64,000 nucleotides of DNA from Anaerolineales bacterium (GCA_034434015.1 DAOUAB010000059.1:26971-90970); one strand, 5' to 3'. Positions 4,102 to 59,465 are shown, numbered from the stretch's first letter. The notes: generated from the letters alone by a model not told the origin. Program-made: numbers and translations.

Positions 4102-4662
4102 TTAAGGCGAGCCAGTTGGGGTGAGAGTTGGCGTGGGCGTGTCCGCCGGCGCGGTGTTGGTCGGCGTGGGCGTGTCCGCCGGCGCGGTGTTGGTCGGCGT
4201 CGGCGTCTCAGTCGGCGGGAGCGTGGCGGTCGGCGTCGCGGTCAACAGGGTCGCCGTGATGGACGGCGACGGCGATGGCGTGATGGTGCCGGTCGGGGTC
4301 GGCGTCCAGGTATACGTGGGCGTGGGCGTGTTGGTCGCGGTGTTGGTGGGCGTGCGGCTGGGCGGGACAAACTGCGTCGGCGTCGCCTGGAGCGTGGGGG
4401 TGGGCGCGCCGGGCGTGCTCACCGTCGCTGGGAGGGTCGGCGTCGCCGATGGCGGGAGCGTGATGGTGGCGACCGGGGTCAGGAGCGGGTTGCCGGTGAC
4501 GGTGGCGAGCAGCGTGGCGGTGGGTCCGGGACCGCCGGGCGCACGGTCCGGCGCCAGGGCCAGGGCCAGGATTCCCAGGCAGTAGAACGGGAGGGTGAAC
4601 AGAATGATGCCGATGAGGATTCGGTACGTCCGCTGACGGACGCTGTCTGCGCCTGGCTCCAT
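4102..4662 (-). CDS. Single-pass membrane protein with a Thr/Pro-rich extracellular tail (start trimmed to MEPGADS)
   Basis: Hydrophobic segment ILIGIILFTLPFYCLGILALAL followed by TPT repeats; 33-bp tandem duplication at 4130-4195. Confidence 0.7.
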   Translation of the reverse strand: MEPGADSVRQRTYRILIGIILFTLPFYCLGILALALAPDRAPGGPGPTATLLATVTGNPLLTPVATITLPPSATPTLPATVSTPGAPTPTLQATPTQFVPPSRTPTNTATNTPTPTYTWTPTPTGTITPSPSPSITATLLTATPTATLPPTETPTPTNTAPADTPTPTNTAPADTPTPTLTPTGSP

Positions 4663-4845
4663 CTTGGCCTTTATCTGGCAGTCTGAGGGGACACCGCGCC
4701 GATGATAGCAGAGAGGATTGAAAATCACAAACGCGGTCGGGATCGGGGTACAGCCACCGTGGGGGGTCAGTTTCCGGCGCCCCGATCCTTCCGCCATCTC
4801 GACGAAGCCGAGCCGCTCAGGGTGCAGGCCGAAAGGCGTATTGTT

Positions 4846-6423
4846 TTATGTGAACGAATATGGGGTGAGGATGCGGACCTCGGTGATGCGGTCCACCGGC
4901 AGGCTGTTGCGCATGGCGGCGCGGCGCACGGCCCCCGGCGAGGACGCATCACAGATGCAATAAGCGCGGCACCGGTCGGCGGAGACGTACGTGTGCAACC
5001 AGATCACACCGTCGAGCGCGTCGTCGCCGAGGAGGGGCGACGCCGTGGACGCGCTGGCGCCGTGGGTCGGCGAGCTCAACGGTTCTGCCAGGGTCTGCTC
5101 GACATGCTCAATCTTGAGCGCCAGCGCCAGGGCGCGTTCCAGGAATTCCAGGCCGCGCGCGTGATCGAGATACAGCCAGCACAGCCCGGCGATTTCGTAC
5201 AGGCGCGGCAATTCGCCGTCTTCTTCAAAGTGCCGGGCCAGGGCCAGGCCCTTCTCGGCCATCGCCACGCCGCCGGCGTTGTCGTTGCGGCCGAGTCTCA
5301 GCCAGGCCTCCATGTTGTAGGCGAAGATCAGCTCGCGATTGGGCGTGAGCGGCTCCAGCACCGCCAGCGCGGCCTGGTTGGCGCGCTCGGCTTCGTCCTT
5401 CTGGCTGGTGACTTGCAGCAGCATCGAGAGCGCGCTCAGGGCGCGGAGGCGCGTCAGATCGGCGCGGGCGGCGGGCGAGCGCCGCAGGGCGACGAGCGTC
5501 AGGCGGTGCAGCGCCAGGCGCTGGGTGGGCGGCATGGTCTCGAGGATCGTCTGCCGCGCCAGTTCGTGCCGGAACGACAGCGCCTCGCCGTGCGCGGCCA
5601 GCATGCCCAGGCTCAAACACTCCTCGGCGGCGTAGGCCTCGGCGCTGGTGACCGCGGCCAGCAGCGCCGGCTCGATGCGCGGGCCGATGACGGCGGCGGC
5701 CCGCAGCACCGCCTGCCCCGAGAGCGAGAGACGCGCGGCGCGCGCCAGCACTGCCTCCCGCACCGTGGGCGGAAGGCCGCCGCCGGCGGCGATGGCTTCG
5801 GTGACAAAGAAGGGGTTGCCGCCCGTCTGCTGATGCAGGCTCTCCGCCTCCAGGCGGCGCTCCCCGAGCAGGGTGCGCACGGCGCCGACGGAGAGCGGCG
5901 TAAGGGGCAGGCGGACGACGACGTTCGAGGCGGCCAGATCGACGAGCAGCGCGCGCAGGGGATGGCGAACGCCGAGCTCATCGTCTCGATAGGTGAGCAC
6001 GACGAGCGCCGGCGCGCCGGCAACGCGGCGGCTGAGGTACTTCAGCAGGTCGAGCGTGGCTTCGTCGGCCCAGTGCACATCCTCGACGATGACCAGGCTG
6101 GGGCGCTGGCGCAACTCGGCCAGGAAGACGGCAAAAAGCGCAGCCGGTGGCCCGCCGGCGCTGAGGCGCGCCGGCCACTCGCCCTTGAGCTGGGCCGCCA
6201 TGTCGTGCAGCGGGCCGAGCGGGCGAGGGGTGAAGAGGGCGTCGCACGCGCCCCACAGCACCCGGACCTGATGGCGCTGGTCATGCGTGAACTGCTCGAC
6301 GAGGGCCGTCTTGCCGATGCCGGCCTCCCCGCTGACGAGCACGACACGGCCGCGGCCCGCCAGGGCCCCGTGCAGCGCGGCTTCGAGTTCGGCGAGGGGC
6401 GGTTCGCGTTCCAGAAGAGGCAT
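4846..6423 (-). CDS. AAA-ATPase (MalT/LuxR-type STAND-like) with partial TPR region, fused to a C-terminal DUF4242-like domain; probably a deletion chimera
   Basis: MPLLERE..LVSGEAGIGKT (Walker A), IVEDVHWADEATLDLL; C-terminal GVIWLHTYVS..CICDASSPGAVRRAA..LPVDRITEV; no LuxR HTH. Confidence 0.7.
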   Translation of the reverse strand: MPLLEREPPLAELEAALHGALAGRGRVVLVSGEAGIGKTALVEQFTHDQRHQVRVLWGACDALFTPRPLGPLHDMAAQLKGEWPARLSAGGPPAALFAVFLAELRQRPSLVIVEDVHWADEATLDLLKYLSRRVAGAPALVVLTYRDDELGVRHPLRALLVDLAASNVVVRLPLTPLSVGAVRTLLGERRLEAESLHQQTGGNPFFVTEAIAAGGGLPPTVREAVLARAARLSLSGQAVLRAAAVIGPRIEPALLAAVTSAEAYAAEECLSLGMLAAHGEALSFRHELARQTILETMPPTQRLALHRLTLVALRRSPAARADLTRLRALSALSMLLQVTSQKDEAERANQAALAVLEPLTPNRELIFAYNMEAWLRLGRNDNAGGVAMAEKGLALARHFEEDGELPRLYEIAGLCWLYLDHARGLEFLERALALALKIEHVEQTLAEPLSSPTHGASASTASPLLGDDALDGVIWLHTYVSADRCRAYCICDASSPGAVRRAAMRNSLPVDRITEVRILTPYSFT

Positions 6424-6482
6424 CAGGCGCAGCTGAAGAAAGCCGGTCGCGGTTGCCGGACCGGGCCATTGTATCAAAGTAC

Positions 6483-6509
6483 AAAACGAGCCGGTCATTG
6501 ACCGGCTCG
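6483..6509 (-). terminator. Hairpin terminator downstream of the duplicated OB-fold gene 3' end
   Basis: cgagccggtc-att-gaccggctcg perfect 10-bp stem with aaaa on +. Confidence 0.6.
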
Positions 6510-6531
6510 CCTGTTTGCCTGGGTCGCGTGC

Positions 6532-6573
6532 TCAGTGGGTGGTCAAAAAAGACCTGAATTTGTAGCTGTACAC
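6532..6573 (-). repeat. 42-bp remnant copy of the 3' end of the DUF35/OB-fold gene (direct repeat of 11684..11725)
   Basis: 37/42 identity by manual alignment; translates VYSYKFRSFLTTH* versus VYGYKFRPVLTTN*. Confidence 0.85.
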
Positions 6574-6581
6574 ATGATTTC

Positions 6582-6659
6582 GAACCTGTCTCTAAACCTC
6601 AGCAGAGGCGTCGCCGACGGCACTGCCGTCGGCTATCGGGCGGGTTTAGAGATAAGCTC
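6582..6659. mobile_element. MITE-like element, copy 1 (imperfect TIRs, central GC hairpin)
   Basis: TIRs gaacctgtctctaaacc / gagcttatctctaaacc (14/17); core gccgacggc-act-gccgtcggc; 6607..6656 identical to the reverse complement of 59402..59451. Confidence 0.7.
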
Positions 6660-6754
6660 TTAACGAATTTCGCCAGGCGCGGGGGGCGCGGTGACGAGCG
6701 CAAGTGGTCCGAGCCTGAATGCCGCGACTGTCCTCAGTCGGGCCCTTCGCGCGT

Positions 6755-7582
6755 CTACTCCCACTTGAACTTCCAGGCGGCCAGCGCGCTGAAGCCCACG
6801 GTGTAGGCCGCCAGACCCAGCATCGGCCACCACGGCTCGGCGGGCAGTGACCCATTCGCCAGCAACGGGCTGATGAGGGTGTTCAGCATCGCCGTCGGCA
6901 GGTACGGGCTGATCGTTTGCAGGAACGGCGGCAGGATGTGGGGCGGGAAGCCGCCGCCGAGGAAGAACATCGGCAACAGCGTGAACATGAACGCCGCGCT
7001 GGCGACATCAGGTTTGCTCGCCAGACAGGCGAGGAACAGGCCCAGAGCTATAAAGGCCAGCACCCCAAACACCAGCACAAGCATCGCCGTCACCGCGCCC
7101 GGGCCGTTCACGCCGATCCCCAACGCCAGCCAGCCGAACAGCAGCACGATGGCCGCCTGCGCCGCGCTCACCAGGGCCTGCGCCAACCCGAGCCCGATGA
7201 CCAGGTGGCCGAGCGGGGTGGGCGTAACGGCCAGACGCTGGAACACGCCCTGCGCCCGCCAGTTGACGATGCGCATGGCCGCTGTCTGCCCGCCCAGCAT
7301 CACGGTGAGGCCGACAATGGCCGGGAAGATGAAGGCGACCAGGTCCATATCGCCCGGCTCCTCCGGGCGGCCCACCACCCAGAATAGCACCAGCATGAAC
7401 AGCGGCGTGAGCAGGGTAATGGCGAAAGTGCGCAGATCATTCAGGCTGGCGCGGATCAGGGCCGAGGCGAATTGAATGATCGGACGGAGAGCGGTTCGAG
7501 CAGGGGGGATAGAAATCAGGGTGTTCATGGTTTGCCTGGGAGGTTGCGGACGGCGACGCTTGTGGGGCGGCGCGGCGTTCAC
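6755..7582 (-). CDS. ABC-2 type exporter permease (alternative start 7528)
   Basis: About six TM segments, FPAIVGLTVM, LPMFFLGGGF, ISPYLPT; GTGA overlap with the ATPase stop. Confidence 0.85.
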   Translation of the reverse strand: MNAAPPHKRRRPQPPRQTMNTLISIPPARTALRPIIQFASALIRASLNDLRTFAITLLTPLFMLVLFWVVGRPEEPGDMDLVAFIFPAIVGLTVMLGGQTAAMRIVNWRAQGVFQRLAVTPTPLGHLVIGLGLAQALVSAAQAAIVLLFGWLALGIGVNGPGAVTAMLVLVFGVLAFIALGLFLACLASKPDVASAAFMFTLLPMFFLGGGFPPHILPPFLQTISPYLPTAMLNTLISPLLANGSLPAEPWWPMLGLAAYTVGFSALAAWKFKWE

Positions 7583-8346
7583 GCCTCGCGCAACGCGCGG
7601 CCCGTCAACTGCAAGAAAACTTCCTCAAGATTGAGCGCGCGCCCGTGGGGCGCCGCCGATGGGGCCGCAATGCGGCCCAGCAGGGCCGCGGGCGTATCCA
7701 AGGCGATCAACCGGCCGCCATCCAGGATGCCGACACGGTGACACAACGCCTCGGCTTCTTCGAGGTAATGGGTGGTCAGGATGACGGTGCGCGCCTCCGC
7801 GCCCAGCCCGCGCACCAGATCCCATAGATTGCGCCGCGCCTGCGGGTCGAGGCCGGCGGTCGGCTCATCGAGAAAGACGATCTCCGGATCGTTGACCAGC
7901 GCCAGCGCCAGCGCCAGGCGCTGCTGCTGGCCGCCGCTCAGCCTGGCAGGCAGAGCGTTCGCCTTTTCGGCCAGCGAGACGCGCTCCAGCAATGCCAGGG
8001 CGCTGGCGCGGTTGATCTGACGGCCATACAGATGCGCGAACAGTTCGATCTGCTGAAGCGCCGTCAGGTCAGGCAACAGGCTCGTCCGCTGCAGCTGCAC
8101 GCCGATGCGGCGCTTGACGGCCTGCGCGTGCGCGGCGAGGTCCTGTCCCAGCACGGTGACGCGGCCCGCGTCGGCCCGGCGCAGACCCTGCAAGAGGCCG
8201 AGCGTGGTCGTCTTGCCCGCGCCGTTTGGCCCCAGCAGGCCGAAGATCTCGCCGCGATACACGCTGAAGGAGAGATCGTCCACCGCGCGCACATCGCCGT
8301 AGGCCTTGTGGAGGTGTTCGACGTGAATGGCGATGGAGGCGTTCAT
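7579..8346 (-). CDS. ABC exporter ATP-binding protein (DrrA/CcmA-like)
   Basis: [38 protein letters not shown]. Confidence 0.95.
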   Translation of the reverse strand: MNASIAIHVEHLHKAYGDVRAVDDLSFSVYRGEIFGLLGPNGAGKTTTLGLLQGLRRADAGRVTVLGQDLAAHAQAVKRRIGVQLQRTSLLPDLTALQQIELFAHLYGRQINRASALALLERVSLAEKANALPARLSGGQQQRLALALALVNDPEIVFLDEPTAGLDPQARRNLWDLVRGLGAEARTVILTTHYLEEAEALCHRVGILDGGRLIALDTPAALLGRIAAPSAAPHGRALNLEEVFLQLTGRALREA

Positions 8347-8522
8347 TGGGCCTTATCCTTCGGATCGCGAGCGTTGGACGCCAGCGCCAGCGCGATGGCC
8401 GCGCCCAATCCCACGCCCGGCGCGAGGCCCTCCGGCCCAAAGCTCGCGCCCAGCGCCACGCCGACGCCGATCCCCAGAGCCAGCCACATTCCAACGTTGT
8501 TTGAGCGTCGTCTTTGGTTCAT
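8343..8522 (-). CDS. 59-aa Gly-rich two-helix membrane peptide (below the ORF-track cutoff)
   Basis: Manual translation MNQRRRSNNVGMWLALGIGVGVALGASFGPEGLAPGVGLGAAIALALASNARDPKDKAQ*; AGGAG RBS; ATGA overlap with the ATPase start. Confidence 0.8.
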   Translation of the reverse strand: MNQRRRSNNVGMWLALGIGVGVALGASFGPEGLAPGVGLGAAIALALASNARDPKDKAQ

Positions 8523-8644
8523 AGTATTTGCTCCTGTTGGCTGACACGTTACGCCAGAGTGCGCCGCCGCTCCAGTATCTGGCGAGATAGATCGGGGTAA
8601 ACAAAAAGGCCAACGGGAGGGTTGGCCGGGGGGTGGACAGGCGA

Positions 8645-8662
8645 CTATGACTTTCGGTATAG
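8645..8662. promoter_or_regulatory. Imperfect palindrome, candidate response-regulator box upstream of the ABC operon
   Basis: ctatgac-tttc-ggtatag; similar box at 11253..11270. Confidence 0.5.
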
Positions 8663-8672
8663 GGTGTGGCGC

Positions 8673-9302
8673 TCAATCGAGATGCACGATCCCGCGCTTG
8701 AGCGCCTCGGTCACCGCTTGCGTGCGGTCGGTCACGCCCAGTTTGCCCAGCAGGTTGTTGACGTGGATCTTCACCGTGCCTTCGGCGATGCCCAGGGCTG
8801 CGCCGATCTCTTTGTTGCTCCGGCCGGCCACGATGAGTTTCAGCACCTCGAGCTCGCGGGGGGTCAGGGCCTCGGCCGTCAGCCGGACGGCCAGTTTGGC
8901 GGCCACCTCGGCGGGGATGCGCTTCTGGCCGGCGTGCACGGCGCGGATCGCCTCGAGCAATTCATCGCGGGGCGTGTCCTTGAGCAGGTAAGCTTCGGCC
9001 CCGGCCTGGAGCGCGCGGTAGATGTCCTCGTCGCCGTCGTAGGTGGTGAGGACGATGATGCGGGCCGCGGGCCGCGCGGCCCGAATGTGCGTGATGGCCT
9101 CCACGCCGCCCATCTCCGGCATCCGCAAATCCATCAGGATCACGTCCGGCTTGAGCTGACGGGCCAGTTCCACGGCGCGTCGGCCGTCCTCGGCCTCGGC
9201 GGCGACTTGCATGTCCGCGCGGCGGGCGATCATCGCGGCCAGGCCCTCGCGCACCACGGCATGGTCGTCGGCGATCAGGATGCGGATGAGCGATTCAGGC
9301 AT
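8673..9302 (-). CDS. NarL/LuxR-family response regulator
   Basis: ADDHAVVREG, DVILMDLRMP, YLLKD, LTPRELEVL..SNKEIG..EGTVKIHV. Confidence 0.95.
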   Translation of the reverse strand: MPESLIRILIADDHAVVREGLAAMIARRADMQVAAEAEDGRRAVELARQLKPDVILMDLRMPEMGGVEAITHIRAARPAARIIVLTTYDGDEDIYRALQAGAEAYLLKDTPRDELLEAIRAVHAGQKRIPAEVAAKLAVRLTAEALTPRELEVLKLIVAGRSNKEIGAALGIAEGTVKIHVNNLLGKLGVTDRTQAVTEALKRGIVHLD

Positions 9303-11169
9303 GGGTCGGGATGCGGCATCTGACAGTCGTTCCGCCCGCTGGCGCGCTGGTCACGATCAATTCGCCGCCATGTTGGGCGGCGCGCTCGCGCATGCCCACC
9401 AGGCCGAAGCCGCCCGGCGCGCCAGGGCGGAGGCGCTGCGGATCGAAGCCGCGTCCATTATCGCTGACTTCCATTTCAACGGCGTCCGGCCGGGCGCGCA
9501 AGGCGACGCGCAGGCGCGTGGCGCCGGCGTGCCGGAGGGCGTTGATCACGGCCTCCTGCCCGAGGCGCAGCAGATCAGCCTCCAGACCGGGCGAGAGCGC
9601 TGGCCATTGCTCGGGCCACTGCCATTCCACCGAGAGCGGCGCATCGGTCGTCAGGGCTGTGATCGAATCGCGCAGGGCGCTGGGCAGGGGCTTGCGTTCG
9701 AGCGGCTGTGGGCGCAGGGCATACACCGAGCGGCGCGCTTCGGCCAGACTCTCGCGCGCCAGGTCGCGGGCGCGGGTGAGATGCCGGTTCACGTCGCCCC
9801 CCGGCTCGCCCAGCGCATCCTCAGCGGCCTCGAGTTGGATGACGATGCCGGTGAACCCCTGCGCCAGGGTGTCATGGATTTCGCGCGCCATGCGGTTGCG
9901 CTCCTCCAGCAGGGCCGCCTTTTGATTCTGCTCGGCCAACCGGGTGAGCTGCATGGCGAGGGTCACCTGCTGTGCCAGGGCCTGCGCCAGCTCAATCTCG
10001 TCGACGCTGAAGCGGCGGCGGGTGAGGCAGTTGACGCTAAAGTGGCCGAGCACTTCGGCGCCGAGCAGGAGCGGCACGATCAAAATCGTCTGGAGGCCCT
10101 GCGCCAGGAGCCGTGCGCGCTGCTTCAGGCGCGGATCGTTGGCGACGTCTTCCACCACAAGCGGGCGGCGCGTACTGAGCAGCTCATTCCAGACGGCCAG
10201 GTCGGCGGGCAGCGAGCGCGGGGCGTCATCGCCCAGGTCGGCGGCGCTCATCACCCGGCCGTCGAGATAGGCCAGGTGCAACCTCACCTCGCCCTGCTGG
10301 CCATCGTGCAGGAACAGGCTCACGGAAGGCGCGTCGAGCTGCGCGGCGATGGCCGAGAGAGCCTGTTGGAGGATGCGGTCGAGCGAGGTCTCCGGCGTGA
10401 GCGCATTCAGGGTGTGGGCCAGCGCCAGCGTCTGCCCGCGCGACACTTGCAGGGCGCGCTCCAGAGAGCGCGCGGATAGCCAGCTCAGCCACGCGCCCGC
10501 CGCGTACACGCTCCACCAGAACAAAACCAGCCCCAGGCCCTGCGCGGGCGTGCCCACGGGATACACGGGCGTCCAGCGCCCCGTCTGCTCGCTGAGGGTG
10601 AATAACGCGGTGAGGATCGAGATGGCCATCAGCGACCCGAAGAAGCCGTTGGATCCCAGCACCAGACCGCTGATGAGAATGCCGAGCAGATAGAGCGCGT
10701 TGACCGGGCTGTTCATCCCATAGAACTGCGCATTGAAGGCGACGGGCAGAAAGATGCCGCTCATGAGGCAGCTGGCGGCCCAGAATGACCGGCCGCGCCG
10801 GAGCAGTATCTCGGCCAGGCCGCACAGGGCCAGCAGGCCAACGCCGTCCCACGGGAAGAGCAGATTGAAGGGCACGCCCGCCCACCCGGCGAGCAGGTAG
10901 AGTGTCGCGCCAAGGGCGGTGAGGGCAAGCGCCCAGCGCAGCAGGCGGGCGTTGACGCCGGGCAGGGACGACGTCATGGGAGGCCGCTCGCGCCAAAAGC
11001 GCCATCCGACGGCGGCCAGGCCGCCGGCCACCACGCCCAACGCCAGCCCGACCACCCAGTCGCTGTTCACCCAGCGGCTGAGCGCGACGCCGGCCGCGCC
11101 GCCCAGTGCGGTGCCCGCGCTCCAGGCGACGATGAACTTCCAGGAATAGGGCGTGCGGGAAGCGTGCAT
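9295..11169 (-). CDS. Membrane sensor histidine kinase (multi-TM, GAF, HisKA_3, HATPase)
   Basis: ERNRMAREIHDTLAQGF, QEAVINALRHA, DNGRGFDP, GFGLVGMRERA. Confidence 0.92.
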   Translation of the reverse strand: MHASRTPYSWKFIVAWSAGTALGGAAGVALSRWVNSDWVVGLALGVVAGGLAAVGWRFWRERPPMTSSLPGVNARLLRWALALTALGATLYLLAGWAGVPFNLLFPWDGVGLLALCGLAEILLRRGRSFWAASCLMSGIFLPVAFNAQFYGMNSPVNALYLLGILISGLVLGSNGFFGSLMAISILTALFTLSEQTGRWTPVYPVGTPAQGLGLVLFWWSVYAAGAWLSWLSARSLERALQVSRGQTLALAHTLNALTPETSLDRILQQALSAIAAQLDAPSVSLFLHDGQQGEVRLHLAYLDGRVMSAADLGDDAPRSLPADLAVWNELLSTRRPLVVEDVANDPRLKQRARLLAQGLQTILIVPLLLGAEVLGHFSVNCLTRRRFSVDEIELAQALAQQVTLAMQLTRLAEQNQKAALLEERNRMAREIHDTLAQGFTGIVIQLEAAEDALGEPGGDVNRHLTRARDLARESLAEARRSVYALRPQPLERKPLPSALRDSITALTTDAPLSVEWQWPEQWPALSPGLEADLLRLGQEAVINALRHAGATRLRVALRARPDAVEMEVSDNGRGFDPQRLRPGAPGGFGLVGMRERAAQHGGELIVTSAPAGGTTVRCRIPTHA

Positions 11170-11252
11170 GGCGAGACGGTGTCTGATGCGTGAGCAACCT
11201 CAGGATAGCAGAAGCCGATGCCGGGCGGAGTGAACCTAAGCCAGAGCGGCCA

Positions 11253-11270
11253 CTATAACTGAGGTTATAC
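11253..11270. promoter_or_regulatory. Palindrome upstream of the two-component operon, candidate autoregulatory box
   Basis: c-tataac-tgag-gttata-c, perfect 6-bp arms. Confidence 0.5.
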
Positions 11271-11289
11271 CTCACCGCGTGGGTAATCT

Positions 11290-11526
11290 CAAATGTCCTG
11301 GAACGGCGCAGTTTCCTGGCGAGGCCTCGTATTCGCCGCCCGCATACAGGGCGCAGCCGCTGGCCGCTTTCAGGCCTTCGTGAGCGTCACAGGTGACCAA
11401 TTGCTCCGCTGCGTCGTGCGCTTGTGCTTCCCGACGCCAATCTTCTGCGCCGCTTCCAACTCGATCAGCGCCTGCGCCAGCTACTGCAGTGCCTGGCGCA
11501 GGAAGCCCCGTCCAGCGTCAGGCATC
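11290..11526 (-). pseudogene. Degenerate, internally deleted IS256-family transposase remnant
   Basis: GFLRQALQ*LAQALIELEAAQKIG..KHKRT (IS256 N-terminus-like) joined out of frame to QLVTCDAHEGLKAA (IS256 DDE-region motif). Confidence 0.65.
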
Positions 11527-11621
11527 CAGGCAGGCCGGTGACTCTCAACCGGCTGAGCCGGTGGCCTACTGCCCGGGCATCGTCAGTGCAACCGGGAAGG
11601 GAAAGCGCTTGGGACAAAGCA

Positions 11622-11662
11622 AACAGGCGGCGGACTCCATGAATTGAAGTCCGCCGCCTGTT
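11622..11662 (-). terminator. Terminator of the hmgS-thiolase-DUF35 operon
   Basis: 15-bp perfect stem aacaggcggcggact/agtccgccgcctgtt. Confidence 0.7.
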
Positions 11663-11683
11663 GCCCAACAGATGGTATGGCGT

Positions 11684-12085
11684 TCAGTTGGTGGTCAAAA
11701 CAGGCCTGAATTTGTAACCGTACACCAGCATCCCGCGTTCCCCGTCTTCACGGAGTTTGCGCGTGACCATCTCCACCGGCGTGCCGATGGAGACCTGGCC
11801 ATTCTCGACGTCGGTCAACTGGGCCGTGACCAAAGGGCCCTCTTCAAGCTTGACCAGGGCAACCGTGTAAGGGACGTTGCTCTCGTATCCCTCCGGCGCG
11901 TCATAAACTGTCGTGTAGGAGAAGACCTCACCTCGCCCGGTAAAGACATAAGGAGTCTTGGCCTCACCCGCGCAGTTCGGACAGACGTCACGCGGCGGGA
12001 AGATTTTCACCTCACAATGCGGACAAACCTCTCCAACAAGACCATACCTTTGCTGCTGAAGCCGCCAGTGGCGCGAGATTTCCAT
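11684..12085 (-). CDS. DUF35 Zn-ribbon/OB-fold protein (thiolase-HMG-CoA synthase scaffold type)
   Basis: CPHC..FPPR-VCPNC zinc ribbon; YTTVY..PYTVALVKLEEGPLVTAQL; YGYKF. Confidence 0.92.
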   Translation of the reverse strand: MEISRHWRLQQQRYGLVGEVCPHCEVKIFPPRDVCPNCAGEAKTPYVFTGRGEVFSYTTVYDAPEGYESNVPYTVALVKLEEGPLVTAQLTDVENGQVSIGTPVEMVTRKLREDGERGMLVYGYKFRPVLTTN

Positions 12086-12182
12086 AAAGCTCTCCTTCTG
12101 AATTACCTGCGGGGAATGCTATCTCGATTGCGCTATCAGAAACTATCGGAGAGGCTTTCTAGGGCTATCACTTTGCTTATAG

Positions 12183-13331
12183 TCAATCTACTCTCTCGAA
12201 AATATGCGTAACTACCGTAGATCCTGCACCGCCGATTGATTGAGACATTCCATAACGAGCGCCCTTAACCTGATTTGGACCGGCCTCGCCTCTGAGTTGT
12301 AGGACGGTCTCGGCCACCTGATAAACGCCCGTCGCCCCGCCCGGGTTGCCGCGCGCTTTCAAGCCCCCAAAGGTCGAGATCGGCACTCTTCCATTTATGG
12401 AAATTTCGTTGTCGGCGGCCAGCTTCCAGCCGAGTCCCGGTTCGGCGAATCCGGCCGCTTCCAGGCTGAGCGCGCTGAAGATCGTGAAGGCGTCATATAG
12501 CTCGAACACCTGGATCTGGTTGGGCGTGATGCCTGACGTGCCATACGCCTTGGCGGCCGAAAAACGGGCGGCTTCAAACACCAGCGGGTCCGGACGGTCG
12601 TGGACGGCCAGGGTGTCGGTGGCCATCGTCGAGGCCGCGATGCGGATGGCGGGGTGATCGGGGGTGGGCCGGGACGTGACCAGCAGCGCCGCCGCGCCGT
12701 CGCATTCCGGGGCCGTGTCGAACATGTTGATCGGGTCGGCTACCACGCCGGCCTTGACGAAGGCCTCGGCGGTGAGGGCGTTGCGGAACATCGCGTTCGG
12801 GTTCGACCTGGCGTTGGCGTGCGCGTTGACGCTGAAGTTGGCGAAATCCTTCAACGCGACGCCGTGCGCGTGCATGTAGCGGCGCATGAGCAGGGCCGCC
12901 AGGGCGGTCGGCGTGGCGCCCTGGGCGCTTTCCCAGTCGCTGTCGGCGGAGGTGGCCATCGCGGCGGCCACACCCGGCCCGACCTTGTCCGTCATCTTCT
13001 CGACGCCGACCACGAGCGCGGACTCGGCGGCGCCGGCGGCCACGGCCAGGTACGCCTGGCGCAGCGCCGCGGCGCCCGAGGCGCCGGCCGCCTCGACCGA
13101 GACGGCCTCGATGCCGCGCAGCCCGGCGAAATCGGCGACGAGCGCGCCCAGGTGGGCCTGATGGCTGAGCGGGCCGCCGAGCATGTTGGCCACAAACAGG
13201 GCCTCCGGGTTTGGCCGGGGCGCGTCCCGGGCGACGGCCTCGATGGCGTAGAAGGCCAGCTCGCGCAGCGATTTGTCCCAGTGTTCACCGGCCGGGGTCA
13301 GCCCCACGCCGGCGATAAAAACGTCGCGCAT
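12183..13331 (-). CDS. Archaeal/SCP-x-type thiolase-fold protein lacking canonical catalytic residues
   Basis: MRDVFIAGVG, GVEKM, DGAAA, GGLKARG-PGGATG, GEAGPNQV; EAAGASG instead of EAACASG. Confidence 0.88.
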   Translation of the reverse strand: MRDVFIAGVGLTPAGEHWDKSLRELAFYAIEAVARDAPRPNPEALFVANMLGGPLSHQAHLGALVADFAGLRGIEAVSVEAAGASGAAALRQAYLAVAAGAAESALVVGVEKMTDKVGPGVAAAMATSADSDWESAQGATPTALAALLMRRYMHAHGVALKDFANFSVNAHANARSNPNAMFRNALTAEAFVKAGVVADPINMFDTAPECDGAAALLVTSRPTPDHPAIRIAASTMATDTLAVHDRPDPLVFEAARFSAAKAYGTSGITPNQIQVFELYDAFTIFSALSLEAAGFAEPGLGWKLAADNEISINGRVPISTFGGLKARGNPGGATGVYQVAETVLQLRGEAGPNQVKGARYGMSQSIGGAGSTVVTHIFERVD

Positions 13332-13336
13332 CGTGT

Positions 13337-14527
13337 TCACTCCGCCAGATTGTCGGCCAGGGCCTGCGCCAGCGCGCGGGCCAGGGCCAGGTTGTCGGCC
13401 AGGGCGGCCTGCCGATCGGCCTCCGCCGAGAGCGGCGGCGACTGCAATTGCACCGTGGCCACGTAGCGGCCGACGACGAAGCTGATCTCGGTGACGGCGA
13501 TGGACGCGCCGTCGGCGCTGGTCATCACCTGGCTCCACGCCCGGCTGCTTTCACCCACGCTCGGCGGGGACGAGAGCTCCGCGGCGCCCGGCAGACCGAT
13601 CATGGCCCGCAGACCGCGCGGCGCCGCCGAGGCCTGGCGGTAGGCTGAGATCTGCTGGAACAACGCCGAGCCCGCCACCTGGTCGAACTCCTCCGCGTTC
13701 ACGGGCTTCACCATGTAAAGCTGATAGCCGGCGATCCGGCCGAGCTGGTTGAGGGTGGCGCGGGCGCCCTCGCTGAAATCGGAATTCAAGGTCCAACCGC
13801 CGAGATACTGGTCGCTGATGATCCAGCGTTCGCCCAGGGCCGGGTCCAGGGCCGCAAGCTGCGTCTGGCCGAGGAGCCGGGCGCGCAGGTCCGGCAGACC
13901 CGCCTTCAGCAGGTCGCGCAGGGCGGCGGGTTCGGCGCCGGCCTTGAGTTTGTCCGCCACCCGCTGCGCGTAGCGCAGCGGCTCGTCCGGACCGGGCAGG
14001 ACGTCGGCGGACCCGAACATCGTCACCGAGCCGACGGCGTTCCGGTAGCGGAAGTCCACCCGATACAGGCCCTGGTCCACGTCGATGTCCGGCGGCGTGT
14101 AGCGCCACACCTGGCTCTGCTCGCCGACGGCCGACGCATCCACGCGCTCCCAATCGGCGCCCGGGCTCTCGATGTCCATGCCGGCCTGGGCGTCGGCGAC
14201 GGTGCGATAGAGCAGGATCTGCAGCGTGAAATCCACATAGTCCGAGTCTTCCGGCGGCGTGTAGCGGGCCGTGTACAACTGTTCAACGTTGTGCAGGCTG
14301 CCGGCCGGGACCGTGTCGGTGACGACCGGCGCGGCCGGGTCAACGTCCGGCGGCCGGGACAGATCCACGGCGGTCTGCAGGGTCTGGTCGGTCAACGCCC
14401 AGCCGGCCGGCAGGTCGGCGGTGGTCAACTGGTAATCCCAGGCGTCGCCCAGCACCAGCGCGGGGGCCGGCGCGGCGCAGCCGGCCAGGACGAACAGGCA
14501 GAAAACAAGCAGGAGGTTTCGTTTCAT
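13337..14527 (-). CDS. Lipoprotein with two tandem PknH-like extracellular repeats
   Basis: MKR + hydrophobic stretch + LAGC lipobox; two similar halves (..VGEQSQVW..FRYRNAVGSV / ..VGESSRAW..FVVGRYVATV). Confidence 0.7.
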   Translation of the reverse strand: MKRNLLLVFCLFVLAGCAAPAPALVLGDAWDYQLTTADLPAGWALTDQTLQTAVDLSRPPDVDPAAPVVTDTVPAGSLHNVEQLYTARYTPPEDSDYVDFTLQILLYRTVADAQAGMDIESPGADWERVDASAVGEQSQVWRYTPPDIDVDQGLYRVDFRYRNAVGSVTMFGSADVLPGPDEPLRYAQRVADKLKAGAEPAALRDLLKAGLPDLRARLLGQTQLAALDPALGERWIISDQYLGGWTLNSDFSEGARATLNQLGRIAGYQLYMVKPVNAEEFDQVAGSALFQQISAYRQASAAPRGLRAMIGLPGAAELSSPPSVGESSRAWSQVMTSADGASIAVTEISFVVGRYVATVQLQSPPLSAEADRQAALADNLALARALAQALADNLAE

Positions 14528-15755: not shown

Positions 15756-16877
15756 TCACTCGAATTGTAACCGGCCGCCCAGCAGGGCTTGCGGTTTCCA
15801 GGGCCGGGCGCGGTCGCTGGACCAGGGGGCCGGCGGCGCGCTGACCAGGGTGCACAGCGCCAGGAGGGTGGCGTCGTAGTTCACGCGCCAGCCGGCGAAG
15901 TCGGACCAGGCCTGGTCCAGGTCCGGCTTGAGCGGCAGGCCGGCGGCGCGCAGACGTTCCACCGCGTCGTCGAACTCGGCGCGCGTGAGGCTGATGGGCT
16001 GGGCCGGGAAATGTGGATCGGGGTGATAGGGGAGGCCGAAGAAATCGCAAATGTGGCGCAGGGCCAGGTAGCCGGCGCGGATGCACAAAGCAGCCTGCGG
16101 GTTCGGCGGGTGGCCCAGCGTGGATTGGTACAATGCAGCGGCATCCAGGATCGCGCCGGCCGCCGTGATCCAGGAGTGATGCGGCTGAGGCGAGCGGAAG
16201 AAGGCCAGCACCGGCAGGGAAGTGTGCGTCTCGTCCAGTTGCGAGAACCAGATCTCCCACTCGCGCCACAGGTCGTTGAAGTGGTCCATGCGGCCGAGCG
16301 GGAAGGCCAGTTCGAACATATACACAGCCGAGGGCGGCGAGCCTGCCCGCGTCTCCAGCAGGTTGACAAGCGTCTCGCGCGCGGAGAAAGCCGAGTAGAT
16401 GGTGGGCAGGTAAGAGATGAGCAGGGCGGCCAGCGTCATGCCGAACGCAGCCTCGGAGAAGGACAGCGCCGCGATCAGCGGAGTCTGGGTGGGCGGGACG
16501 AAGCCGAGCGTCAGCAAGGTGGAGCCGCTCTCCAGGAAAGCGTCAAAGAAAGGCCGGACGCCCAGCGCCCAGAAGAGGCACGCGTAGCCCAGGCACACCA
16601 GCGTCAGCAGCGCCATGGGCAGGACGAGCAGGCTGACGGGCGCGTACATGGCCAGCGCCGCGTCCTGGGCCGCAAAGGACCGCGCTCGTTTCACCCGCAG
16701 ATGAAACGCCAGGCGCACCGCCCGGAAGATAGAGCGCGTGATCCGGTCCGGCGCCGAGCGTGGCAGCACGAAGGTCCGCAGGGCGGAGACCACGGCGCTG
16801 TAGATCAGCCAGACGCCAAGGCCGACCGCCAGGGCGCGCAGAGCGAGGTCGAGGGGGGTGAGGGGCGCATTGGTCAT
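15756..16877 (-). CDS. Membrane protein with an ion-channel-like pore segment
   Basis: TM helices flanking [13 protein letters not shown], followed by a soluble C-terminal domain ([14 protein letters not shown]). Confidence 0.6.
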
Positions 16878-44423: not shown

Positions 44424-45236
44424 ATGATCCGACTCATCGCCTGCGACATTGACGGCACGCTCGTCGGCCGCGATCTGCAGCTCTCGCCACGCGTCAGGCA
44501 CACCATCGCCCGGGCGCTGGAGCGCGGCCTGCTGGTCACGCTGGCCACCGGGCGCGGCCCGTCGCCCACCGATTACTTCGCCGAGCAGCTCGGCCTGACC
44601 GCGCCGCTGGTCTGCCTGCAGGGCGGCGTGATCTACGACTACCGGCTGGGCCGGGCGCTGCACGAGACGCGCCTCCCGCCGGCCGTCATCCCCTGGATCG
44701 TGGGCCACGCCCGCGCGCGCGGCTGGCACCTGCATTTCGAGACCACCAACCTGGTCTATATGCCCTACGGCGTGGAGACGCCCGACGAGCTGGCGGCGCT
44801 GTTCCGCGTGGCGAACCTGACGCGCGTGAAGGATTTCCTGACCGGGATGCCCGAGCCGCCCCACAAATTCATCGTCTCCGTCCACCACCCCGCGGAGCGC
44901 GATGGCGTGCAGCGCGAACTGGACGCGCTGGTCCAGGCGGCGGGCCTGCCGCTCGACGTGTTCCCCTCGCACCCGGTCCTGCTGGAAGGCCTGCCGGCCG
45001 GGATCAACAAGGCGACCGGCCTGGCCTGGCTCGCCCGGCATCTGGGGGTCGAGCGCGACCAGGTGCTGGCCATCGGCGACAACGACAATGATATCCCGAT
45101 GCTCCGATGGGCGGGCGTCGGCGTGGCGATGGCGGGCGGCTCGCCCGGCGCGCTGGCCGCCGCCGATTGGGTGGCGCCGGGCGTGGACGCCGACGGCGCC
45201 GCCGTCGCCATCGAAAAATACGCCCTGAATCCGTAG
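44424..45236 (+). CDS. Cof-type HAD-IIB hydrolase
   Basis: ACDIDGTL, LATGR, KATGL, AIGDNDND. Confidence 0.9.
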   Translation: MIRLIACDIDGTLVGRDLQLSPRVRHTIARALERGLLVTLATGRGPSPTDYFAEQLGLTAPLVCLQGGVIYDYRLGRALHETRLPPAVIPWIVGHARARGWHLHFETTNLVYMPYGVETPDELAALFRVANLTRVKDFLTGMPEPPHKFIVSVHHPAERDGVQRELDALVQAAGLPLDVFPSHPVLLEGLPAGINKATGLAWLARHLGVERDQVLAIGDNDNDIPMLRWAGVGVAMAGGSPGALAAADWVAPGVDADGAAVAIEKYALNP

Positions 45237-45247
45237 AAAATCTGTGC

Positions 45248-45276
45248 TTGACCGGCGCGAACATCCGGTCTACAAT
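45248..45276 (+). promoter_or_regulatory. lexA promoter with a candidate SOS box between -35 and -10
   Basis: TTGACC-N17-TACAAT; GAAC-atcc-GGTC at 45259-45270 (one mismatch to GAAC-N4-GTTC). Confidence 0.7.
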
Positions 45277-45335
45277 AAAGGCCAGAATCGCTCATTTGTG
45301 CGGGCCGCCCGGCGGGACCGCGGATGGAGGCGCTT

Positions 45336-45986
45336 ATGGCCAAAGGCAAGCTTTCCCCACGACAGCAGGACATCCTGAAATTCATCGGCCGGTTCACGCA
45401 GGAGCGCGGCTACCCGCCCACCATCCGCGAGATCGGCGAAGCCGTCGGCATCTCATCCACCTCGGTCGTCAACTACAACCTCAACAAGCTGGAGAAGGAG
45501 CACCACATCGTGCGCGACCTGAAAGTCTCGCGCGGCGTGCGACTGTCGGAAACGGCGCACCGGCCCTCGCTGAGCGAAGTGCTGTCCGTGCCGCTGGCCG
45601 GCTTCATCTTCGCCAGCCAGCCCGTGATGGTGGGCGACACCGCGCAGACCGCCGCCGATGAGACGCTGGAGCTGACGCGCGGCATGGTGAATGAGACCGG
45701 CGACCTGTACGCCCTGCGCGTCAAGGGCGACTCGATGATCGACGCCATGGTGAGCGATGGCGACATCGTGGTGATGAAGAAGACCGACCAGGCCCGCAAC
45801 GGCGAGATGGTGGCGGTCTGGCTGCCCGACCGGAACGAGACCACGCTCAAGTACTTCTATCAGGAGAACGGCCGCATCCGGCTGCAGCCCGCCAACCCCA
45901 CCATGCAGCCGATCTATATCGATAACCCCAGCCGGGTCCAGGTGCAGGGCAAGGTTGTCCTGGTGATGCGCCAGTTAGACCGGTGA
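45336..45986 (+). CDS. lexA: SOS repressor LexA
   Basis: GYPPTIREIG, SSTSVV-Y-L, VKGDSMID, RNGEMV, TLKYF. Confidence 0.95.
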   Translation: MAKGKLSPRQQDILKFIGRFTQERGYPPTIREIGEAVGISSTSVVNYNLNKLEKEHHIVRDLKVSRGVRLSETAHRPSLSEVLSVPLAGFIFASQPVMVGDTAQTAADETLELTRGMVNETGDLYALRVKGDSMIDAMVSDGDIVVMKKTDQARNGEMVAVWLPDRNETTLKYFYQENGRIRLQPANPTMQPIYIDNPSRVQVQGKVVLVMRQLDR

Positions 45987-59396: not shown

Positions 59397-59465
59397 TAGA
59401 ACTTATCTCTAAACCCGCCCGATAGCCGACGGCAGTGCCGTCGGCGACGCCAGAGACAGGCTCTA
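59397..59465. mobile_element. MITE-like element, copy 2 (inverted relative to copy 1), overlapping the pepF stop codon
   Basis: TIRs tagaacttatctct / tagagcctgtctct (11/14); 50-bp identity to 6607..6656. Confidence 0.7.

Follow-up and report, generated by a model that had tools for sequence, protein, structure and literature searches.

An exporter cassette behind a mevalonate-pathway DUF35 gene and the displaced gene end beside it in an Anaerolineales genome

We analyzed a 64,000-nt stretch of DNA from an uncultured Anaerolineales bacterium (GCA_034434015.1 DAOUAB010000059.1:26971-90970), hereafter the window, in which a ~4.6-kb cassette encoding a two-component system and an ABC-2 exporter lies behind a DUF35 gene of the mevalonate pathway. 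The last 42 nt of the DUF35 gene recur on the far side of the cassette, each copy of this gene end is followed by its own terminator, a related genome (L007) presents the site without the insertion, and in two other genomes, designated K and G3, the cassette occupies the same position with a divergence far below that of its flanks. We favour recombination anchored in DUF35 homology as the source of this arrangement, with a probability of roughly 0.55.

The duplicated gene end and its two terminators

The minus strand holds every gene across 4.8-16 kb of the window. The features on which the argument turns are the following.

11684-12085, minus strand: DUF35 gene, 133 aa (Pfam OB_ChsH2_C and zf-ChsH2), the last gene of an HMG-CoA synthase/thiolase/DUF35 set
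11684-11725, minus strand: repeat copy A, the last 42 nt of the DUF35 gene, a direct repeat of 6532-6573
11662-11622, minus strand: terminator 1, behind the live DUF35 gene; hairpin of 18 pairs with T-tract, fold z -6.5
6743-11293, minus strand: transferable cassette, ~4.6 kb, its ends set by homology to G3
6532-6573, minus strand: repeat copy B, read as the orphan last 13 codons and stop of the pre-insertion DUF35 gene; 37/42 match to copy A
6512-6484, minus strand: terminator 2, read as the original DUF35 terminator; hairpin of 13 pairs with T-tract, fold z -3.2
4702-4732, minus strand: point where synteny with L007 resumes, with a promoter-like site of the next core gene

A sequence-only reading of the window had claimed that the end of the DUF35 gene recurs at 6532-6573, and this duplication is real. 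Copies A and B are identical at 37/42 positions in direct orientation, far above chance, as the second-best match to the 42-mer within the window is 23/42 and the best 42-mer match in 200 first-order Markov random windows is 25/42. The 42-mer is not a widespread unrelated repeat, a possibility raised in the same reading: there is no further copy anywhere in the window, and the DNA to the right of the cassette in K, G3 and strain N (L093, 97-98% identical to the window) holds no remnant of a DUF35 end, the best 42-mer similarity there being 20/42.

On the minus strand, copy B retains both frame and stop, reading VYSYKFRSFLTTH where the live end reads VYGYKFRPVLTTN. All five differences between the copies are non-synonymous, and two of them fall within the motif YGYKFRP, which is identical in most, and nearly identical in the rest, of the ~130 relatives listed; for these reasons copy B looks like a decaying stub. 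The likeness of the two copies begins abruptly at GTGTAC (6573 and 11725, respectively), the sequences upstream of it being unrelated, and both copies carry TTG ACC ACC. Against other DUF35 ends of the same length, copy A matches L008 at 34/42 and L011 at 35/42 positions by hand count, and copy B matches K at 25/42 and G3 at 27/42. The gene end of L007, PAVAEAN, is unlike either copy.

The claim of a hairpin terminator behind each copy also holds, since a terminator scan calls both hairpins (11662-11622 and 6512-6484) as terminators on the minus strand. The two differ in their relationships. The spacer, hairpin and tail of terminator 1 (11608-11683) match the DUF35 downstream region of L008, and of L008 only (blastn, 80% over 75 nt), and the 17-mer tail of this terminator is found, among 174 loci, only in this strain and in L008. 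The hairpin pattern of terminator 2, GCCGGTCNNNGACCGGC, is unique within the window; of 94 loci, the only ones to have it are those of the same strain, of strain N and of L007, where it stands directly after DUF35. Furthermore, a four-way alignment places terminator 2 as the orthologue of the L007 hairpin right behind DUF35. Because the pattern is shared with L007 at this very place, terminator 2 is identified by comparison as the terminator native to DUF35 in the clade of the window and L007. The downstream regions of the two repeat copies thus belong to different lineage types, L008-like for terminator 1 and L007-like for terminator 2, which disfavours a duplication in place.

The empty site and the near-identical cassettes

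Among the genomes available, L007 is the closest to the window, at ~79% nucleotide identity, and the best match among species-representative genomes (thiolase, 81% at the amino-acid level). In L007, a hairpin, GGCCGGTCAGAGACCGGCC, starts 28 nt after the DUF35 stop, and 53 nt after that stop homology to window 4732-140 resumes at 79%. With DUF35 joined to the terminator-2 orthologue in L007 and synteny resuming at 4732, the two repeats enclose inserted DNA, which displaced the original DUF35 end, as the sequence-only reading had proposed. The alignment makes L007 an empty site, lacking both the cassette and the regulator gene at 4846-6423; hence the predicted direct junction of DUF35 and a terminator-2-type hairpin exists, in a genome that is without the regulator as well.

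The cassette is absent behind DUF35 in the ~130 relatives listed with readable downstream sequence. A metagenome scan with DUF35 returned at least 80 relatives, at 91% identity or less, and among the matches listed none has the cassette and none has the LTTN tail. Exactly this DUF35 is encoded on ten contigs, six of which are shown (L001-L006), and all six carry the module. In L008, ~110-nt direct repeats (4370-4470 and 5330-5445) surround a nucleotidyltransferase/HEPN-like gene pair downstream of DUF35, which further suggests that the region after DUF35 is variable in the group. The DUF35 contig of metagenome-assembled genome (MAG) SAW132, L009, ends at 7806, inside DUF35 at codon 115; this may be an assembly break at a repeat.

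Two genomes carry a near-identical cassette after DUF35. The left side of K (L178/L179, obtained via exact-protein look-ups) has another DUF35 allele, at 79.5% nucleotide identity, and its own terminator, similar to that of L105; a spacer of 223 nt follows, unrelated to that of the window (no similarity above shuffled controls), and then the cassette, 99.3% identical from window 11269. On the right side of K (L187/L188, same two samples) the cassette is 97.1% identical up to window 6741; behind it come a terminator and promoter of its own, a LuxR-type regulator (71% nucleotide identity to that of the window), a 1114-aa gene, a 222-aa gene and an SCO4226-like gene. The K gene after this regulator block (L187:9182-9810) is 87% identical to window DNA 40 kb away (45231-45859), so K and the window are rearranged relative to each other here. 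G3 (L185/L186, a 495-kb contig), whose core genes are 70-74% identical to those of the window, has HMG-CoA synthase, an unknown gene, thiolase, DUF35 and its own terminator, similar to those of L011 and L108; downstream of the terminator there are a spacer of ~95 nt, the cassette at 93.2% identity (window 11293-6743), 185 nt and a convergent esterase gene.

The K and G3 cassettes are 93-99% identical to that of the window, whereas the adjacent DUF35 genes are only ~75-79% identical. At third codon positions the divergence is as follows.

Window versus K: cassette genes 0-5% divergence, adjacent DUF35 45%
Window versus G3: cassette genes 10-12% divergence, adjacent DUF35 52%

Because third-position divergence is far lower in the cassette than in the adjacent DUF35, the shared address in the window, K and G3 is, on this comparison, the product of recent cross-species horizontal transfer into one fixed locus and not of common descent. 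The carriers are not one clade, as the window is nearest to L007 and G3 nearest to L008. The sequence-only reading held that relatives with the module in the same place and no duplicated end would speak against an insertion; K and G3 are formally such relatives, but the insertion nonetheless stands, because their cassettes are 93-99% identical next to DUF35 genes at 75-79%.

The cassette, its borders and the surrounding genes

The cassette and the elements around it are arranged as follows.

11294-11621, no strand assigned: spacer, containing an IS256-like motif at 11362-11400
~11253-11270, minus strand: operator-like palindrome CTATAACCTCAGTTATAG, ~85 nt upstream of the kinase start
9295-11169, minus strand: GAF/HisKA_3 histidine kinase with multi-pass N-terminus (Pfam, NCBIfam)
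8673-9302, minus strand: NarL-type (NarL/GerE) regulator (Pfam, NCBIfam)
8343-8522, minus strand: 59-aa membrane open reading frame (ORF), glycine/alanine-rich, overlapping the ABC ATPase start
7579-8346, minus strand: ABC ATPase, nearest to TIGR01188 drrA (Pfam, NCBIfam)
6755-7528, minus strand: ABC-2 permease, nearest to drrB (Pfam, NCBIfam)
6582-6659, no strand assigned: palindromic repeat resembling a miniature inverted-repeat transposable element (MITE), 78 nt, with 17-nt inverted arms and a central hairpin, 8 nt from copy B
4846-6423, minus strand: decayed MalT/LuxR-type AAA_16 regulator of a second accessory block, which L007 lacks
59398-59465: second, partial copy of the MITE-like repeat, directly after a stop codon and near another terminator hairpin

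Pfam and NCBIfam agree that the genes between the repeats encode an ABC exporter and a two-component system, although NCBIfam scores of all cassette proteins are under the family cut-offs. Pfam on every cassette ORF returned only kinase, regulator and ABC domains and no recombinase or transposase domain, bearing out the earlier remark that no integrase is present. The same gene order recurs in L087, L088, L091 and L185, which makes the cassette a two-component-regulated ABC-2 exporter module. The 59-aa ORF is 41% identical to an ORF at the same place in L087. Homology among orthologous cassettes begins at the palindrome CTATAnCCnnnGnTATAG, the form of CTATAACCTCAGTTATAG that is conserved in other genomes, and the palindrome upstream of the kinase gene is probably the binding site, or operator, of the NarL-type regulator. 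Within the intergenic stretch that precedes the 59-aa ORF (8598-8656, minus strand) lies a terminator-like hairpin (8608-8627); conservation of this stretch in L090-L092 is 76%.

A search for the module elsewhere, which the sequence-only reading had suggested, yielded not only the near-identical copies after DUF35 in K and G3, but also orthologous cassettes with the same gene order at unrelated loci, with kinase identities of 64-70% (tblastn) or 63-70% (BLASTP).

L087: MAG SAW132, on a contig other than the DUF35 contig L009 of the same MAG
L088: MAG CAZCEC, on a contig other than the DUF35 contig L013 of the same MAG, where the DUF35 locus is without the cassette
L091: the assembly of L007, similar coverage, on a contig other than that of DUF35

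No flanking repeats were found around the orthologous cassettes in L087, L088 and L091. The module had been delimited as 6532-11725; the insertion does lie between the repeats, but the unit shared between genomes is 6743-11293 and not the whole of that interval.

Two mobile elements had been placed at the borders of the module. The MITE survives as a 78-nt palindromic repeat with 17-nt arms, present in only two copies in 64 kb, one of them partial, with no target duplication seen; it occurs in none of the other fetched loci, including the DNA to the right of the cassette in K, G3 and strain N. The IS256 remnant remains unestablished. The motif LV..DAHEGLKAA (11362-11400, minus strand) is identical to a real IS256 transposase at 13/21 residues (pairwise E 9e-5), and this motif, of 9 residues, is all that survives of the match. 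The HLRLPTR part is shared with G3 and so belongs to the cassette. Pfam detects no IS256 domain in translated frames at E up to 10, and tblastn against plasmids gives an E-value of 8. The spacer 11294-11621, in which the motif lies, has no homologue in any fetched locus by blast or tblastx.

The DUF35 gene closes a set in the order archaeal-type HMG-CoA synthase, an unknown 396-aa gene, thiolase and DUF35. The HMG-CoA synthase exceeds the equivalog cut-off of NF003274 (552 bits, cut-off 244; NCBIfam), and the thiolase, which lies near it, scores just below that of PRK06064 (400 bits, cut-off 420; NCBIfam). With family-level matches for three genes standing together, this is an archaeal-type HMG-CoA synthase/thiolase/DUF35 set of the mevalonate pathway, so the target was correctly described as an isoprenoid-pathway gene. 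The tripartite set and the role of its complex have been described (PMC12960953). The 396-aa gene (13337-14527), inside the set, and a 373-aa gene (15756-16877), next to it, are both on the minus strand and both conserved, and neither is matched in Pfam or NCBIfam; at the same places in G3 lie genes close to them in size, which Pfam does not match either.

The GC content dips from ~70% to 42-55% over the thiolase 3' end, the intergenic region and DUF35 (window 11600-12600). Each of the five relatives in the alignment (L007-L012 compared) shows the same dip, which is therefore a conserved feature and not a sign of transfer. As the GC content of the cassette is genome-like, base composition was rejected as a transfer sign.

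To the right of terminator 2, the regulator of the second accessory block is without 279 nt (93 aa), in frame, at 5446/5447, and after residue 440 it runs into the tail of an SCO4226-like gene. Strain N has a full-length 888-aa regulator, 98% identical to that of the window. Homologues of this LuxR-type regulator form a multi-copy family in varied contexts. At the bounds of the block (4733-6470, compared with L007:10750-10760) there is an apparent short imperfect direct repeat of the target, TTTGATACAAT at ~6462-6472 and TTTGTGATTTTCAAT at ~4718-4732, against TTTGTGATATTCG in L007, which may be due to chance.

Strain N has the order permease, 22 nt, clipped terminator 2 and full-length regulator, and is without window 6507-6725 (219 nt, comprising spacer, MITE-like repeat, copy B and a 24-nt spacer). 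We considered strain N as the ancestral junction and rejected it: the outer part of the 5' arm of its hairpin is gone while the 3' arm still holds an unpaired CTCG (fold z -0.75), so strain N is a derivative with a 219-nt deletion.

Origin of the insertion and known systems

We infer the donor, the mechanism of recombination and the function of the cassette from these comparisons. In the favoured reading, recombination would have been anchored in DUF35 homology, with an illegitimate second junction that displaced the native gene end. Before the event, the locus would have had thiolase, DUF35 and terminator 2, followed by the regulator block or the next core gene. In the donor, a related Anaerolineales, the cassette would already have stood close behind DUF35. 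One end of the incoming DNA would have paired through DUF35 homology, and the other would have been joined illegitimately 42 nt before the recipient stop codon, beside the present MITE-like repeat (6573/6574, no homology), either by a single crossover of a circularised fragment or by homology-facilitated illegitimate recombination (HFIR) of a linear one. As a result, the working gene would end in copy A and terminator 1, both brought by the insert, and the last 42 nt of the recipient gene (copy B) would have moved 5.1 kb downstream together with terminator 2, copy B then gaining five substitutions. Linkage to the conserved mevalonate genes would carry the cassette to the same address in different species.

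Several features of the locus point this way. The foreign DNA opens with a DUF35 downstream region right after the stop codon, which suggests that the insert was linked to DUF35 in its source, and since this downstream region, of the other lineage type, starts exactly at the stop of copy A, the incoming DNA probably paired through DUF35 homology. Copy B adjoins terminator 2 and the regulator block beyond the cassette, which argues that no cassette lay between DUF35 and terminator 2 before the event. The second junction is without extended homology, as in HFIR or single-crossover integration. Furthermore, carriers in which the cassette is linked to DUF35 exist, K and G3 being a possible donor type: in both, DUF35 and a terminator of its own lead over 170-225 nt of spacer to the cassette. 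The integrase-like integration into a gene 3' end that was first suggested is thus retained as far as the displaced gene end is concerned, but homology-anchored recombination accounts for the pattern better than an integrase-type element does.

Some observations weigh against this reading. At 37/42, copies A and B are closer to each other than to the other DUF35 ends sampled, and such likeness does not suit a distant donor; yet their terminators differ in type, terminator 1 being L008-like and terminator 2 L007-like. The combination of like copies and unlike terminators would mean that the donor was very close, that the crossover fell at the very gene end, or that gene conversion homogenised the copies. 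DUF35 is saturated, with every pair 75-80% identical by sliding identity, and for this reason the crossover point is not locatable. The combination of DUF35, terminator 1 and the cassette was found in no genome. Left of the cassette, both K and G3 have a terminator and spacer of their own, so their acquisitions were not simple DUF35-anchored co-transfers from the same source, and K is built from two non-overlapping contigs (L178 and L187) of the same two samples. In addition, the MITE-like repeat 8 nt from the junction, which looks native as it is present in this genome only, may have arrived later or taken part.

The position of that repeat lends some appeal to a transposition-based origin, in which the cassette was moved by an IS256-family element, by the MITE-like repeat or by both, or in which the MITE first broke DUF35 at -42 and the gene was then repaired on a cassette-bearing relative as template, homology being provided by DUF35 on one side and the MITE on the other. 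To the left of the cassette there is an IS256-like motif, and a genome-specific MITE family and the likeness of copies A and B would both fit a very close donor. We nevertheless consider this origin unlikely: the IS256 evidence is one motif, there is no second insertion sequence copy, no inverted ends bound the cassette as in an IS256 composite transposon, no short target duplication is seen, and the DNA to the right of the cassette is free of the MITE in K, G3 and strain N. A target duplication of 42 bp is not known as a transposase signature. A site-specific integrative element, with the 42-mer as att core in the DUF35 3' end, a replacement end carried by the element and an integrase lost or acting in trans, would account for an insert flanked by direct repeats that include a restored gene end and for the same cassette behind DUF35 in three species. 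We regard it as distinctly unlikely, because the insert is without a recombinase domain, the outer flanks are core DNA syntenic with L007, K and G3 are without a duplicated end right of the cassette, and their left flanks differ from those of the window up to the cassette edge; the 'attP side' (terminator 1 and spacer), which should be constant together with the att core and gene end, varies between 99%-identical cassette copies.

It is improbable that the cassette was already behind DUF35 in a common ancestor and disappeared from L007, L008 and others, its high similarity between species being due to later homologous exchange and the L007 empty site to a deletion across copies A and B. Deletions can indeed arise at direct repeats, DUF35 is followed in both the window and K by the cassette, a LuxR-type regulator, further genes and an SCO4226-like gene, and the regulator has diverged like core DNA (71% nucleotide identity between the two). 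However, copy B differs at only 5/42 positions against a DUF35 third-position divergence of 45-52%, so that a neutral remnant of such age ought to be beyond recognition; to the right of the cassette, copy B directly abuts terminator 2, meaning that the native end once touched terminator 2; and neither the carriers, which belong to more than one clade, nor the L007 gene end PAVAEAN, unlike copies A and B, agree with such a history. That the cassette is a new integrase-less mobile unit, homing behind DUF35 in different Anaerolineales species through a dedicated mechanism, for instance a host or trans-acting recombinase working on the gene end or its terminator, with the 42-nt repeat as its footprint, seems to us more doubtful still. 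A chance match or a dispersed repeat could draw on nothing beyond the repeats of a GC-rich background and has a negligible probability, given a match of 37/42 where 200 random windows reached 25/42 at most, the retained frame and stop, the DUF35-type downstream region that follows and the lack of other copies.

Homology-anchored recombination, if correct, would make this locus a clean natural example, in uncultured Chloroflexota, of an accessory regulator-exporter cassette spreading between species 20-30% apart in core genes, with a near-identical cassette always at one address and a leftover gene stub that records the pre-insertion state. Linkage to a conserved housekeeping operon could thereby serve as a homing device without an integrase. 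Annotators should bear in mind that an essential gene may have acquired its end, and with it the terminator, from elsewhere.

Single crossovers of circular DNA duplicate part of a homologous locus and leave it on both sides of the insert (PMC3240628), and HFIR that leaves displaced 3' ends has been proposed (PMC5361080, which cites de Vries & Wackernagel 2002 and Prudhomme et al. 2002 for HFIR). The window resembles both in its one homologous anchor, its one junction without homology and its foreign DNA beside a conserved gene. Those studies describe laboratory events with defined substrates, whereas here we see a natural scar with a duplicated piece of 42 nt and an unsampled donor. Type VI secretion effector-immunity, Rhs and contact-dependent inhibition loci form displacement arrays, in which orphan 3' ends are pushed downstream (PMC5361080). 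As in such arrays, a module would have entered via homology of a conserved upstream gene, and the old 3' end shifted downstream and decayed. Displacement arrays are toxin-immunity loci in which selection retains orphan immunity genes, whereas here a housekeeping mevalonate gene serves as anchor, a regulator-exporter cassette makes up the cargo and only a useless stub of 42 nt is orphaned.

When an integrase-borne genomic island or integrative conjugative element enters the 3' end of a tRNA or protein gene, it brings a replacement end with it. The window shares with them the direct repeats at both ends, the gene end restored by the insert and the displaced old end; it differs in having no integrase, excision or transfer genes and no constant attP side, and the other cassette copies are without repeats.

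Detoxification modules that combine a HisKA_3 kinase, a NarL-type regulator and an ABC-2 exporter are known from the DrrAB type and from Bacillus LnrJK-LnrLMN and YvfTU-YvfRS. The cassette has the same domain set and gene adjacency, and its domains suggest that the membrane kinase would sense a signal and phosphorylate the NarL-type regulator, which would act at the palindrome upstream of the kinase gene and drive the DrrAB-like ABC-2 exporter, probably to expel a toxic compound. It departs from these modules in the GAF domain and long multi-pass N-terminus of its kinase, and in an extra 59-aa ORF. The cassette is a travelling accessory module, moved by a process of known kind, and no new class of system.

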